Source of the DNA: a virus
Taxonomy: Duplodnaviria > Heunggongvirae > Uroviricota > Caudoviricetes
Length of the DNA: 5,019 bases
Reading direction: 5' to 3' (one strand)
Virus record (IMG/VR): IMGVR_UViG_2534682234_000013
The notes under the pieces were generated by a model that saw only the letters and a program-made list of their open reading frames with translations, searched no databases and was not told where the DNA came from. Of this stretch, positions 251 through 4,190 are shown piece by piece; position 1 is the first letter of the stretch; the number at the start of each line of letters is the position of its first letter. Position numbers and translations under genes: made by a program.

Positions 251-1309
251 ATGCTTAATACTGTAAAAATATCCAGTTGTGAGTTAATCAACGCCGACTG
301 CCTGGAATTTATGCGGTCGTTACCCGAAAATTCTGTTGACCTGATAGTCACGGACCCGCCGTACTTCAAAGTGAAACCCGAGGGCTGGGATAACCAGTGG
401 GCGGGTGATGAAGATTACCTGAAGTGGCTGGACCAGTGTCTTGCGCAGTTCTGGCGGGTGCTGAAACCTGCCGGAAGTCTTTACCTGTTCTGTGGCCATC
501 GTCTGGCATCTGACACCGAAATCATGATGCGTGAGCGGTTTAACGTGCTGAACCATATCATCTGGGCAAAGCCGTCCGGACGCTGGAACGGGTGCAACAA
601 GGAAAGCCTGCGGGCGTATTTCCCCGCCACAGAGCGCATTCTGTTCGCAGAGCATTATCAGGGGCCGTATCGTCCGAAAGATGCCGGGTATGAGGCGAAG
701 GGTAGGACACTGAAACAGCATGTGATGGCCCCGCTGATTGCTTACTTTCGTGATGCGCGCGCTGTCCTGGGGATAACGGCAAAACAGATTGCAGATGCCA
801 CAGGAAAGAAAAACATGGTGTCGCACTGGTTCAGTGCCGGTCAGTGGCAGCTGCCGAACGAAAGCGATTATCTGAAATTACAGGCACTGTTTGCCCGGGT
901 GGCAGAAGAGAAGCATCAGCGGGGTGAACTGGAAAAGCCCCACCACCAGCTGGTGGATACGTATGCCTCTCTGAACCGACAGTATGCGGAGCTGCAGAGT
1001 GAATATAAGCATCTGCGGCGGTATTTCGGTGTGACGGTGCAGGTGCCGTACACCGATGTGTGGACGTATAAACCGGTGCAGTACTATCCAGGGAAACATC
1101 CGTGCGAAAAACCGGCAGAAATGTTGCAGCAGATAATCAGCGCAAGCAGTCGTCCGGGAGACCTGGTTGCAGATTTCTTCATGGGGTCGGGGTCGACAGT
1201 GAAAGCAGCGATGGCGCTGGGACGTCGTGCAACTGGCGTTGAACTGGAGACTGAACGTTTTGAGCAGACGGTGCGGGAAGTACAGGATTTAATCATTCGT
1301 AACGGATGA
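251..1309 (+). CDS. Phage orphan DNA methyltransferase, beta-class N6-adenine/N4-cytosine family (PF01555-like); target site unknown
   Basis: 352-aa ORF. N-terminal motif IV 'DLIVTDPPYF' (aa ~31-40) preceded by a conserved 'ADCLEFMRSLPENSVDL' region; C-terminal AdoMet-binding motif I 'FFMGSGST' preceded by 'HPCEKP'. The order IV -> target-recognition region -> I defines the beta group of amino-MTases. No adjacent restriction endonuclease ORF. Start at 251 chosen because the conserved N-terminal region begins immediately after it; the Shine-Dalgarno is weak. Confidence 0.9.
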   Translation: MLNTVKISSCELINADCLEFMRSLPENSVDLIVTDPPYFKVKPEGWDNQWAGDEDYLKWLDQCLAQFWRVLKPAGSLYLFCGHRLASDTEIMMRERFNVLNHIIWAKPSGRWNGCNKESLRAYFPATERILFAEHYQGPYRPKDAGYEAKGRTLKQHVMAPLIAYFRDARAVLGITAKQIADATGKKNMVSHWFSAGQWQLPNESDYLKLQALFARVAEEKHQRGELEKPHHQLVDTYASLNRQYAELQSEYKHLRRYFGVTVQVPYTDVWTYKPVQYYPGKHPCEKPAEMLQQIISASSRPGDLVADFFMGSGSTVKAAMALGRRATGVELETERFEQTVREVQDLIIRNG

Positions 1310-1349: not shown

Positions 1350-1425
1350 GGCCCTTTAGCTCAGCGGTGAGAGCGAGCGACTCATAATCGCCAGGTCGCT
1401 GGTTCAAATCCAGCAAGGGCCACCA
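1350..1425 (+). tRNA. ileZ: tRNA-Ile (anticodon CAU, lysidine-type; reads AUA), phage-borne ileX-like copy
   Basis: Manual cloverleaf: acceptor GGCCCTT (1350-1356) pairs with AAGGGCC (1415-1421); D-arm GCTC/GAGC; anticodon stem AGCGA/TCGCC with loop CTCATAA (anticodon CAT at 1383-1385); T-arm GCTGG-TTCAAAT-CCAGC; discriminator A plus encoded CCA (1423-1425). Very similar to my recollection of E. coli ileX. The name ileZ follows the usage I recall for Stx-phage tRNA clusters and is not verified. Confidence 0.85.
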
Positions 1426-1505: not shown

Positions 1506-1582
1506 GCGTTGTTAGCTCAGCCGGACAGAGCAATTGCCTTCTAAGCAATCGGTCACTGGTTCGAATCCAGTACAACGCACCA
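1506..1582 (+). tRNA. argO: tRNA-Arg (anticodon UCU; reads AGA, possibly AGG)
   Basis: Manual cloverleaf: acceptor GCGTTGT (1506-1512) / ACAACGC (1572-1578); D-arm GCTC-AGCCGGACA-GAGC; anticodon stem ATTGC/GCAAT with loop CTTCTAA (anticodon TCT at 1540-1542); variable loop CGGTC; T-arm ACTGG-TTCGAAT-CCAGT; discriminator A plus CCA (1580-1582). The name argO follows recalled Stx-phage nomenclature and is not verified. Confidence 0.85.
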
Positions 1583-1869
1583 CACCACACTTATCTGCCC
1601 TGACTCTCTTTTGCGGGCTTTTTATTACAGGAAAGACACCGGACAGTGAAATGTTAAATGCCTCACAATTCAGGCAGTTGACTGTTGCCTGACATGCTGA
1701 GCGTTTGTTAAAAAAATCCTGCATGATGAATCCCCCTGAGCGGCGGGGCATAATGACAGATGTTTGGTTGCGTATTGTATAGGCAAGTTGCGGATTCTGT
1801 CTGGTCATTGCAGAATTCACCGGGAGGCACCCGGCATCATGCTGTATACAGAGATTAGGCATATATCTA

Positions 1870-1894
1870 GGCTTCTCATCGCAGGAGCCTTTTT
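1870..1894 (+). terminator. Intrinsic terminator-like hairpin with T5 tract (+ strand)
   Basis: GGCTTC (1870-1875) pairs with GGAGCC (1884-1889) as a 6-bp stem including one G-U pair, with loop TCATCGCA, followed by TTTTT (1890-1894). Confidence 0.4.
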
Positions 1895-1900
1895 ACATGC

Positions 1901-1926
1901 AAAAAAAAGCCCGAGTGGGTTCGGGC
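1901..1926 (-). terminator. Intrinsic terminator oriented for the minus strand (hairpin GCCCGA/TCGGGC followed on the minus strand by U8)
   Basis: On the + strand: AAAAAAAA (1901-1908) then GCCCGA (1909-1914), loop GTGGGT, TCGGGC (1921-1926). Read on the minus strand this is a GC-rich 6-bp hairpin followed by TTTTTTTT, a canonical rho-independent terminator. Nothing T-rich follows it on the + strand. Confidence 0.45.
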
Positions 1927-1986
1927 AACAGCATGAGATACTTGCATTGTCATTTTTATCGTGTGGATTTTAACCAGGGTTTATAA

Positions 1987-2018
1987 GGCTGCGCAACTGC
2001 GCGGCCTTTTTCGTTTTG
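1987..2018 (+). terminator. Strong rho-independent terminator upstream of the esterase gene
   Basis: GGCTGCGC (1987-1994) / GCGCGGCC (1999-2006) form an 8-bp GC-rich stem (one G-U) with tetraloop AACT, followed by TTTTTCGTTTTG (2007-2018). It lies ~90 bp upstream of the ATG at 2106. Confidence 0.6.
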
Positions 2019-2105
2019 CGGGCTGCGGTTCTCCTCTTTTGATTCTCCTTGTGGCCGGACCGTGGCCCGCAACTGTTGAGGAAAATCCCGGAAAGGGGAG
2101 GAATA

Positions 2106-4043
2106 ATGACATTTAAACATTATGATGTTGTCAGGGCGGCGTCGCCGTCAGATCTTGCGGAAAAGCTGACACACAAACTGAAAGAGGGCTGGCAGCCGTT
2201 TGGTAGTCCTGTGGCCATAACCCCTTATACCCTGATGCAGGCGATTGCCGCGGAGGGGGATGTGACCACGCCAGTGGTTGTGCCCGGCACGGGGGATGGT
2301 GGCTATCCGGGAGTGGTCACCACGGAGCCAGATTATTACTACGTTATTCCACTGGCCGGGCAGTCGAACGGCATGGCTTACGGTGAGGGGCTTCCTCTGC
2401 CGCAGACATATGACCGTCCTGACCCGCGTATAAAGCAACTGGCTCGTCGCAGCACAGTGACGCCGGATGGCGCTCCCTGTAAATATAACGACATTATTCC
2501 GGCAGACCACTGTCTGCATGATGTACAGGACATGAGCCGTCTTAACCATCCGAAAGCTGACCTGTCGAAAGGTCAGTACGGAACCGTGGGGCAGGGGCTG
2601 CATATTGCCAAAAAGCTGCTGCCGTTTATACCGGCGAATGCGGGTATTCTTCTGGTTCCGTGCTGCCGTGGTGGTTCAGCTTTCACCACCGGGGCAGATG
2701 GAACATACAGTGACGTGACCGGTGCCTCAGAGAGTTCTACCCGCTGGGGTGTGGGCAGGCCGCTGTATAAGGATCTCATCGGTCGTACAAAAGCCGCGCT
2801 GGCAAAGAACCCGAAAAATGTGCTGCTTGCCGTGGTGTGGATGCAGGGGGAATTTGACTTTGACGGAACGCCAGCAAATCACACAGCCCGTTTTACAGAA
2901 GTAGTGGAACAATATCGTACGGACCTTGCAGATATGGTGGGACAGTGCGCTGGTGGTTCTGCTGACGGTGTTCCCTGGATATGTGGAGACACAACTTATT
3001 TCTGGAAGCAGAAGAGCGAATCCACTTACCAGACGGTGTACGGCAGTTACAAAAACAAAACGGAAAAGAATATTCACTTTGTGCCGTTCATGACCGATGA
3101 GAACGGAGCAAATGTCCCGACGAACAAACCGGAAGAAGACCCGGATATTCCGGCATCAGGATATTACGGTGCGGCCTCCCGGACGTCGGCAAACTGGACG
3201 TCAGCAGACCGTGCGAGCCATTTCAGCTCATGGGCACGCAGGGGGATTATTTCTGACCGTCTTGCCTCAGCGATTCTTCTCCATGCAGGACGGACGGCTG
3301 AACTGGTGGGTGGGGAACAGGTTGTGATGCCGCCGGATGAGAAGCCGTCACCGGACACACCATCAACACCGTCAACGGACGGGAAATCAGTGACAACGCT
3401 GCTTTATTACCGTGCAACAGAGTCAGGTGGTTTACTGAATCCGCAGGGATGGGGAGCTGAAGGAGGGCGTGCATTGGTAGTTGATGATGCAGGTGCTGCA
3501 GGAGGTAAGGCGCTGAGGTGGACCAAACAGACAGGAAGTTCCTCGTGGTTTATGCAGCATGATGCCGGTAATGGCGCAGACCTGCTGGAGAAGGGCGGGC
3601 TTATCAGTTGTCGTTTTAAAGTTGATGGCACACTGACAGCTAATCAGTACGCACTGGCGCTGTACTGGCCGGTTTCTTCACTGCCTCAGGGCGTCACACT
3701 GGAAGGTAATGCCGGTCATAACCTGCTGGCGTCGTTTTACGTACAGAGCGATGCCACAGACCTTAATGTGATGTACCACAAGGGAAATGCTGGTCAGAAC
3801 ACGAAGCTGGGGTCATTCGGCGCATTTGATAACGAATGGCATACGCTGGGCTTCCGTTTTGCCGGTAACAACAGTATTGAGGTGACGCCGGTCATTGATG
3901 GTAAGGACGGGACGCCGTTCATGCTGTCACAGTCACCGGTCGGCACGTTTACGGCAGACAAATTGCGCGTGACCGATATCACTAGCGGTGCGACATATCC
4001 GGTGCTGATTGAAAGTATAACAGTGGAAGTGAATAACCCGTAA
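2106..4043 (+). CDS. nanS-p: Prophage-encoded sialate (9-O-acetyl-Neu5Ac) O-acetylesterase, NanS-p type: N-terminal DUF1737-like region, SGNH/SASA esterase domain, C-terminal domain of unknown function
   Basis: 645-aa CDS. Start ATG 2106 preceded by strong SD GGGGAGG (2095-2101); the six-frame ORF extends upstream to a TTG at 2049 with no RBS. 'PLAGQSNGMAYGEG' contains the GQSN block of SGNH-type sialate O-acetylesterases with the presumptive nucleophile Ser. The N-terminus 'MTFKHYDVVRAASPSDLAEKL...' matches my recollection of the NanS-p paralogs encoded downstream of stx in Stx phages and in stx-negative lambdoid prophages of EHEC. A Pro/Ser/Thr linker 'PPDEKPSPDTPSTPSTDGKS' separates a ~220-aa C-terminal domain. 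Function is inferred from motif and synteny. Confidence 0.8.
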   Translation: MTFKHYDVVRAASPSDLAEKLTHKLKEGWQPFGSPVAITPYTLMQAIAAEGDVTTPVVVPGTGDGGYPGVVTTEPDYYYVIPLAGQSNGMAYGEGLPLPQTYDRPDPRIKQLARRSTVTPDGAPCKYNDIIPADHCLHDVQDMSRLNHPKADLSKGQYGTVGQGLHIAKKLLPFIPANAGILLVPCCRGGSAFTTGADGTYSDVTGASESSTRWGVGRPLYKDLIGRTKAALAKNPKNVLLAVVWMQGEFDFDGTPANHTARFTEVVEQYRTDLADMVGQCAGGSADGVPWICGDTTYFWKQKSESTYQTVYGSYKNKTEKNIHFVPFMTDENGANVPTNKPEEDPDIPASGYYGAASRTSANWTSADRASHFSSWARRGIISDRLASAILLHAGRTAELVGGEQVVMPPDEKPSPDTPSTPSTDGKSVTTLLYYRATESGGLLNPQGWGAEGGRALVVDDAGAAGGKALRWTKQTGSSSWFMQHDAGNGADLLEKGGLISCRFKVDGTLTANQYALALYWPVSSLPQGVTLEGNAGHNLLASFYVQSDATDLNVMYHKGNAGQNTKLGSFGAFDNEWHTLGFRFAGNNSIEVTPVIDGKDGTPFMLSQSPVGTFTADKLRVTDITSGATYPVLIESITVEVNNP

Positions 4044-4048
4044 GCAGG

Positions 4049-4096
4049 AAAAAAAGGCCGCCGGGGCAGGGAAAACAAGGAGCCAGAACCGGCGGC
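4049..4096 (-). terminator. Hairpin with adjacent A7 tract on + strand (minus-strand-oriented terminator-like structure), just 3' of the esterase stop
   Basis: AAAAAAA (4049-4055), GCCGCCGG (4057-4064) ... CCGGCGGC (4089-4096); 8-bp GC stem around a ~24-nt loop with possible inner GGC/GCC pairing. On the minus strand the hairpin is followed by a U-run. No T-tract follows on the + strand, so it is unlikely to terminate the + strand late transcript. Confidence 0.3.
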
Positions 4097-4126
4097 AAAT
4101 GTCGTTATATCCAAAGCAAAACATGC

Positions 4127-4155
4127 AGGACACTTTTTTAACCAACAGGTATTAA
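4127..4155 (+). promoter_or_regulatory. Candidate sigma70-like promoter upstream of the small-ORF/holin block
   Basis: AGGACA (4127-4132; matches the GACA of TTGACA), 17-bp spacer, TATTAA (4150-4155; 5/6 to TATAAT), ~35 bp upstream of the ATG at 4191. Weak -35, hand-scanned only. Confidence 0.25.
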
Positions 4156-4190
4156 CGATGTCAACACCATATCAATAACCGGGAGGGATA

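Follow-up and report, generated by a model that had tools for sequence, protein, structure and literature searches.

Why should two transcription terminators stand back to back, a few nucleotides apart, where the minus strand carries no protein gene? The question is raised by the window (the whole stretch of 5,019 nucleotides analysed here, from the Caudoviricetes record IMGVR_UViG_2534682234_000013), for which the first-pass annotation, made from the letters of the sequence, reported a plus-strand terminator at 1870-1894, a minus-strand terminator at 1901-1926 lying "7 bp later" and no minus-strand gene to terminate. These coordinates proved correct to within 1 nt and both hairpins were confirmed. 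As for the missing minus-strand gene, the statement holds for protein genes only: the window harbours at least one minus-strand gene for a small RNA (sRNA), and probably two.

Using a combination of approaches (folding and shuffle statistics, Rfam searches, comparison with published RNAs, and surveys of IMG/VR and of complete E. coli genomes), we conclude with high confidence that the hairpin pair comprises the Rho-independent terminators of two convergent sRNA genes, located in the moron site of an Sp9-type lambdoid prophage. This convergent arrangement was published in 2014, and the present copy is essentially that of prophage Sp9 of E. coli O157:H7 Sakai. None of the data contradicts the identification.

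Genomic setting of the hairpin pair

The window corresponds to the "moron" site in the late region of a lambdoid prophage (Table 1). This site is flanked by the late promoter/tRNA region on one side and by the nanS-p esterase and lysis genes on the other. The gene order methylase, ileZ, argO, sRNA dyad, esterase and holin is identical in Sakai Sp9.

Table 1. Features of the window. Positions are counted from the first nucleotide of the window, and arrows indicate features read on the minus strand; cells are empty where no value is given.
Feature	Position	Strand	Details
DNA methyltransferase	251-1309		
tRNA-Ile2	1350-1425		anticodon CAT
tRNA-Arg	1506-1582		anticodon TCT
Non-coding stretch	between tRNA-Arg and esterase		520 bp
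Candidate sigma-70 promoter of the plus-strand sRNA	1689-1717	+	CTGACA-17-AAAAAT; consensus scan, 9/12 matches
STnc100-family sRNA gene, EcOnc28 homologue (Sakai Sp9)	1692-1900	+	Rfam RF02076
EcOnc03 sRNA, 56-nt form	1960->1905	-	GAUAAAAAUGACAAUGCAAGUAUCUCAUGCUGUUGCCCGAACCCACUCGGGCUUUU; shorter forms start at ~1958 and 1955
Putative EcOnc03 promoter	-35 1996->1991; -10 1972->1967	-	TTGCGC, 18-nt spacer, TAAAAT; read from the sequence
Third hairpin, terminator-like	1985-2018	+	AAGGCTGCGCAACTGCGCGGCCTT (1985-2008) then TTTCGTTTTG; top-ranked site in the terminator scan
SASA-family sialate esterase, nanS-p type	2106-4043		
Second sRNA candidate, terminator	hairpin 4096->4057; U7 4055->4049	-	GCCGCCGG...CCGGCGGC
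Second sRNA candidate, body	~4130 to 4053	-	
Second sRNA candidate, promoter	-35 4164->4159; -10 4141->4136	-	perfect TTGACA, 17 nt, TTAAAA
Small ORFs and holin	beyond esterase		

Several other traits of the region were observed. The two tRNA genes are 80 nt apart, and the interval contains, at 1427-1493 on the plus strand, a decayed phage argN tRNA that has 55 of 77 bases in common with argN2 of Sp5 and has lost 11 nt of the anticodon arm; this remnant was called by neither ARAGORN nor Rfam. Sp5 possesses three tRNAs (ileZ, argN and argO), as compared with two and a pseudogene in the prophage of the window. Further upstream, a terminator-like plus-strand hairpin (88-115; GCCTTCAGTCCTGAAGGC then TTTTTATTTG) overlaps the stop of a small hypothetical ORF that follows the Q-like antiterminator gene and precedes the methyltransferase gene, and could be either tR', the terminator of the late operon, or a terminator marking the end of a gene. 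On the other side, the esterase gene measures 1938 nt in the window and in strain F3113, versus 1854 nt as annotated in Sakai Sp9, and the window carries DUF1378 and DUF826 ORFs, which are missing from the Sakai Sp9 annotation in the interval from esterase to holin. These differences in esterase length and downstream genes suggest that mosaic recombination took place either inside the esterase gene or beyond it.

Both hairpins have the features of Rho-independent terminators

As read from the sequence, the plus-strand hairpin pairs AGGCTTCT (1869-1876) with AGGAGCCT (1883-1890) around a 6-nt loop, and is directly closed by a T5 run at 1890-1894. The minus-strand hairpin pairs GCCCGA (1926-1921) with TCGGGC (1914-1909) around a loop of 6 nt, and runs into a U8 tract at 1908-1901 (A8 on the plus strand at 1901-1908). 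The T run and the A run are separated by the 6-nt spacer ACATGC (1895-1900). Both structures thus consist of a G+C-rich stem-loop directly followed by a U run, the arrangement expected of a Rho-independent terminator.

The folding energies are −11.3 kcal/mol for the plus-strand hairpin (z = −3.7; equally good in 2 of 200 dinucleotide shuffles) and −15.3 kcal/mol for the minus-strand hairpin (z = −3.9; equally good in 0 of 200). Both are among the 13 terminator-like sites detected by a scan of the window, as against 4.5 ± 2.0 in shuffled sequences. These shuffle statistics, together with the conservation of the hairpins described below, rule out that they result from chance or artefact.

The minus-strand gene encodes EcOnc03

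The published 51-nt form of EcOnc03 (Tree 2014, Fig S4, PMC4104026) is an exact substring of the minus strand of the window, at 1955->1905. In Sakai Sp9, EcOnc03 is encoded by the minus strand, appears in northern blots as species of 56, ~54 and 51 nt, is destabilised in the delta-hfq mutant and yields an Hfq-CRAC peak (Tree 2014, Table S2, PMC4104026); its 5' ends bear triphosphates, as determined by RLM-RACE (Tree 2014, PMC4104026). Furthermore, an RNase E-CLASH read opening with GATAAAAATGACAATGC... positions a 5' end at window 1960, and another one, ...CTCGGGCTTTT (…GGGCUUUU), ligated to mntH, indicates that the 3' end lies within the U tract, at position 1905 (Waters et al. 2017, PMC5286369). 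The RNA consists of a variable 5' seed (~1960-1941) and a conserved body (1940-1905).

The first-pass annotation had envisaged a small RNA initiating between 1927 and ~2100, and this part of its reading was borne out, the 5' ends of EcOnc03 being at 1960-1955 and its 3' end in the U tract at 1905. Likewise, the minus-strand 3' end at ~1901 and the start within 1927-2150 that it anticipated are already in print for the Sakai locus, which is different by one base. Sequence identity, family, 5' and 3' ends, and the binding of both Hfq and RNase E are established either in the present work or at this near-identical Sakai locus. By extension from the Sakai RNA of identical sequence, the EcOnc03 of the window is expected to bind Hfq and to depend on it for stability.

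The assignment of the putative promoter of EcOnc03 (Table 1) relies on conservation and on the spacing from the mapped 5' end, the TAAAAT box lying 7 nt upstream of it. The promoter block is kept upstream of AgvB-, AsxR- and EcOnc03-type genes alike (118 loci listed), as well as between Sp9 and Sp5. A consensus promoter scan called no promoter for the minus-strand sRNA, because the −35 box matches the consensus at 3 of 6 positions only.

These data bear on the proposal that the pair is a bidirectional insulator only, acting without stable RNAs to protect the late operon against antisense read-in, and the upstream tRNAs against read-out. Back-to-back terminators do block transcription from both sides, and the third terminator-like hairpin of plus orientation follows them. 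We nevertheless regard this proposal as almost certainly wrong, for two reasons. First, both flanks match curated sRNA families of Rfam over their full length. Second, the near-identical Sakai locus has published Hfq-CRAC peaks, CLASH reads and stable RNAs of defined size, and a purely insulating role is refuted there by northern blotting and RACE. The insulator lacking an RNA product, which had been suggested as an option for the window, is thus contradicted by the published Hfq-CRAC peak, northern bands, triphosphate 5' ends and CLASH reads.

EcOnc03 is a member of the AgvB/AsxR family, distinct from both AgvB and AsxR

Rfam aligns two models over their full length to the minus-strand RNA. 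The AgvB model (RF02702; 1961-1902, minus strand) scores 56.6 bits, marginally above its gathering score of 56, and the AsxR model (RF02703) scores 46.8 bits at the same site, below its gathering score of 63. The RNA also displays the characters that define this family of anti-sRNAs. First, its 3' body, of the ~42-nt kind that ends in a Rho-independent terminator, is GUAUCUCAUGCUGUUGCCCGAACCCACUCGGGCUUUU at 1940->1905. Second, its variable 5' region (14-18 nt in the family) contains the seed GAUAAAAAUGACAAUGCAA, and its length of 56 nt falls within the family range of 51-60 nt. Third, it lies in a moron site downstream of pR', between the moron/tRNA genes and the conserved ORF preceding the lysis genes, and it faces a convergent partner, the STnc100 RNA, which ends 6 nt from its U tract. 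Judged by its sequence, the minus-strand gene is EcOnc03, itself identified by identity of the published 51-mer, and it is placed in the AgvB/AsxR family by its body, length, position, promoter and convergent partner.

Could this RNA be AgvB itself, i.e., a sponge acting on the R1 seed of GcvB to relieve the repression of amino-acid and peptide transporters? [quoted passage not shown] We consider it highly improbable on the following grounds. The GcvB R1 target consensus CACAACA is absent from 1960-1905, as is apparent from the comparison of the 5' regions (GAUAAAAAUGACAAUGCAAG in the window, CGAUAACAACACAACAAUAUCA in AgvB), so that the RNA is not AgvB proper despite its marginal Rfam match. 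The value of −13.5 kcal/mol is equalled by 55% of shuffled seeds, and the AgvB-GcvB duplex reaches −20.9 kcal/mol. Finally, EcOnc03 is handled as a separate member by Tree 2014 (PMC4104026). Identity with AsxR was also rejected, the Rfam score being under threshold and the seed differing from CGAUUAUUAAAACGA, which is complementary to the terminator loop of FnrS. It is worth noting that an Rfam-based annotation would mislabel EcOnc03 as "AgvB", the gathering score of which it passes by 0.6 bits, though it is devoid of the functional motif of AgvB.

The plus-strand hairpin terminates an STnc100-family sRNA gene

On the plus strand, the whole STnc100 model of Rfam (positions 1-206 of 206) matches the window at 173.4 bits, as compared with a gathering score of 47 (E = 1.8e-40), i.e., the gene belongs to the family by full-length sequence and structure. 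The hairpin at 1869-1894 is part of the STnc100 consensus structure. Hence, the plus-strand hairpin terminates a second sRNA gene (STnc100 family, EcOnc28) and no coding or tRNA transcript, a point that had been overlooked by the first-pass annotation. The homologue of this gene in Sakai Sp5, EcOnc27/sRNA103, scores 207.7 bits with the same model.

Published data on EcOnc28 map to the window: a CLASH read falls at 1758-1818 on the plus strand (Waters et al. 2017, PMC5286369) and the Hfq-CRAC peak, at 1774391-1774436 in the old Sakai coordinates, falls at ~1799-1844 (Tree 2014, PMC4104026). The 3' end of the RNA is predicted to lie within the T run at 1890-1894. The candidate sigma-70 promoter (Table 1), which aligns with CTGTCA-17-AAAAAT in Sp5, would yield an RNA of ~170 nt if it is indeed the promoter of this gene. 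The homologues show northern sizes of ~177 nt (EcOnc06) and 235/247 nt (EcOnc27) (Tree 2014, PMC4104026), versus the ~170 nt predicted, which makes any assignment of the 5' end tentative.

The convergent arrangement is conserved and widespread

A scan of IMG/VR with the conserved core GTATCTCATGCNNTTGCCCGA retrieved at least 120 stretches, of which 118 had enough flanking sequence for analysis. Only three classes of seeds occur among these 118 listed copies: AgvB-type (59 copies), EcOnc03-type (42 copies, the second most common class) and AsxR-type (17 copies). All 118 have a convergent G+C-rich hairpin with a T run, 6-9 nt past the U tract of the anti-sRNA.

The plus-strand terminator stem, AGGCTTCT/AGGAGCCT in the window, is AGGCTCCT/AGGAGCCT in other copies (a U.G pair becoming C-G), and in the Sp5-type stem AGGCCTCT/AGGGGCCT a U-A pair is turned into C-G by a change on both sides, i.e., a compensatory change. 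The partners of AgvB-type genes have a hairpin unrelated to the plus-strand terminator of the window. The minus-strand stem is invariant among the copies listed and therefore provides no covariation evidence either way.

The intergenic region was matched in 909 of 5426 complete E. coli genomes, with an identity of at least 99% in 355 matching records, and the 30 RefSeq records listed are all devoid of annotated features at the matching site. The practical value of the present assignment is that the locus is left unannotated by RefSeq in hundreds of E. coli genomes. Coverage of the intergenic region reaches 80% or more in just three records of sequenced phages, with ~82% identity; the exact variant is found in bacterial chromosomes.

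Targets and mode of action of EcOnc03

As a search for partners of the EcOnc03 seed, an RNAduplex screen was run against 18 core sRNAs, in which the seed performed no better than shuffled seeds; its best duplex was that with GcvB mentioned above. The method is too weak for this screen to count as more than a lead. Regarding the controls, the AgvB-GcvB pair was recovered (4.5% of shuffles being as good), and the AsxR-FnrS pair ranked first without being significant. MicC, which drew attention by its 7- and 8-nt complementarities seen by eye and by the first rank of ompC among the CLASH partners, was rejected as a target, its duplex of −10.5 kcal/mol being third-ranked and unremarkable.

The CLASH data offer other leads. 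The best-supported partner of EcOnc03 is the coding region of ompC, with seven unique hybrids found in both replicates and in both orientations (PMC5286369). The interaction involves a perfect 10-bp pairing between GCUGUUGCCC and GGGCAACAGC, which includes the two bases setting EcOnc03 apart from AgvB and AsxR. Another partner, ECs4425, is one that EcOnc03 shares with AgvB1 and AsxR through the conserved GUAUCUCAUGC (PMC5286369). The GO analysis of the EcOnc03 partners by the authors singled out bfr, fieF and mntH (Waters et al. 2017, PMC5286369), and this enrichment of the partner list for mRNAs of iron and manganese homeostasis is a lead from the literature. By analogy with AgvB and AsxR, EcOnc03 probably exerts its effect in trans, through base pairing. 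The mRNAs published as its CLASH partners pair with the conserved body and not with the seed, for which reason the "anti-sRNA" mode of EcOnc03 is an extrapolation from AgvB and AsxR.

The CLASH partners also help in judging whether EcOnc03 regulates in cis, through antisense pairing, the late transcript that it overlaps or the nanS-p leader, the latter having been put forward in the first reading of the sequence. EcOnc03 is fully complementary to any pR'-derived late transcript crossing 1905-1960, and convergent transcription could interfere with read-through. Four lines of evidence make a role in cis very unlikely. First, EcOnc03 ends at least 145 nt upstream of the nanS-p start codon (2106) and leaves the ribosome-binding site uncovered. 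Second, AgvB and AsxR, to which it is related, target core sRNAs in trans (Tree 2014, PMC4104026). Third, the published CLASH partners are distant, unlinked mRNAs (e.g., ompC, ECs4425 and mntH) and not the nanS-p leader. Fourth, the same module precedes differing downstream sequences in different prophages. The antisense part of that reading is accordingly left without support.

A possible role for the three-hairpin module

The reason for the dyad arrangement was called unclear in a 2021 review (PMC7873438). The third hairpin (Table 1) has a folding energy of −19.1 kcal/mol (z = −3.3), is located 95 nt past the first plus-strand terminator and overlaps the −35 box of EcOnc03. It is kept in Sp5 and upstream of all three classes of anti-sRNAs (118 copies listed), and it may be a back-up terminator guarding the lysis genes in lysogens.

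We propose the following scheme. The plus-strand gene would produce an Hfq-binding sRNA of the STnc100 family (EcOnc28) ending at the T5 run, and the minus-strand gene, from its putative TTGCGC-18-TAAAAT promoter, would be transcribed from ~1960 to ~1905 to give the 51-56 nt EcOnc03. Each terminator would stop its own transcript a few bases short of the opposite gene, so that the two RNAs would not be antisense to one another, and would at the same time provide that transcript with a 3' stem-loop and a U tail, as is usual for an Hfq-binding sRNA. The plus-strand terminators, including the third hairpin, would prevent the sRNA transcription of lysogens from running into the esterase and lysis genes, and Q-modified polymerase coming from pR' would read through them. 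In lysogens, the module may act as an insulator, both between the two sRNAs and towards the lysis cassette; once induction has taken place, read-through by Q-modified polymerase may silence the promoter of the anti-sRNA by transcriptional interference. Two bolder ideas, that EcOnc03 is a direct regulator of mRNAs and no sponge of core sRNAs and, separately, that the three-hairpin module is a lysogeny-specific switch, are offered as speculation that we think rather unlikely to be correct. The first of them takes up the ompC pairing and the metal-homeostasis mRNAs on the partner list.

A probable second minus-strand sRNA gene near the holin

Just downstream of the esterase stop codon, the region 4049-4164 probably contains a second minus-strand sRNA gene, with a promoter, a body and a terminator of its own (Table 1). 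The published CLASH fragments of EcOnc33, an RNA of Sakai Sp6 (~71 nt, with a predicted Rho-independent terminator), match this candidate exactly at 4129->4109, 4099->4083 and 4070->4053. No Rfam family matches the candidate. Its location between the esterase and the holin is that given to PasA in the Pas preprint, to which it is likened by position only.

Comparison with known sRNA dyads

Hfq crosslinking, northern blotting and 5' RACE have led to the description of convergent sRNAs, with the moron CDS on one side and the conserved ORF on the other, in the Sakai prophages Sp3, 4, 5, 9, 10, 11, 15 and 17 (Tree 2014, PMC4104026). The four most abundant ones, EcOnc01a/b (AgvB), EcOnc02 (AsxR) and EcOnc03, measure 51-60 nt and share a ~42-nt 3' region preceded by variable 5' regions of 14-18 nt; AgvB is a sponge of GcvB and AsxR destabilises FnrS, both of them acting in trans with Hfq on core sRNAs (Tree 2014, PMC4104026).

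The dyad of Sakai Sp9, with EcOnc03 on the minus strand and EcOnc28 on the plus strand (Tree 2014, Table S2, PMC4104026), is the same locus as that of the window: 525 of 526 bases are identical (window 1585-2110) and the flanking genes are the same. The only difference is a substitution just 5' of the plus-strand terminator stem, the window having T at 1868 where Sakai has C. Strain O157:H7 F3113 is 100% identical to the window over 1600-2105, with the same pairing of an STnc100 RNA and an AgvB/AsxR-type RNA.

The AsxR (EcOnc02)/EcOnc27 (sRNA103) dyad of Sakai Sp5, located downstream of stx2B, has the same plus-strand STnc100 sRNA, a spacer of a few nucleotides and a convergent anti-sRNA of 51-60 nt, and shares the promoter block and the third hairpin with the window. 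It differs in that its minus-strand gene is AsxR (88 bits in Rfam), the seed of which, CGAUUAUUAAAACGA, pairs with the terminator loop of FnrS, unlike the seed of the window; moreover, the window has no stx genes upstream. The AgvB (EcOnc01a/b)/EcOnc06 dyads of Sp10 and Sp17 have the same body (GUAUCUCAUGC..UUGCCCGA...UCGGGC and U tract), promoter and convergent orientation of the partner. Here, the differences are that AgvB has the GcvB-target mimic CACAACA, which the RNA of the window lacks, and that the partner of AgvB has a different terminator hairpin, CCCCTCTCCGGAGGGG.

Lastly, the plus-strand gene can be likened, by position and Rfam family only, to the PasD sRNAs of EPEC prophages (Pearl Mizrahi 2021; Zhu, Shabalina & Storz 2026 preprint). 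Matches to STnc100 occur near the PasA, PasC and PasD genes (Zhu, Shabalina & Storz 2026 preprint), and the plus-strand gene of the window is upstream of a sialate esterase gene, which is the position that the preprint gives for PasD2.
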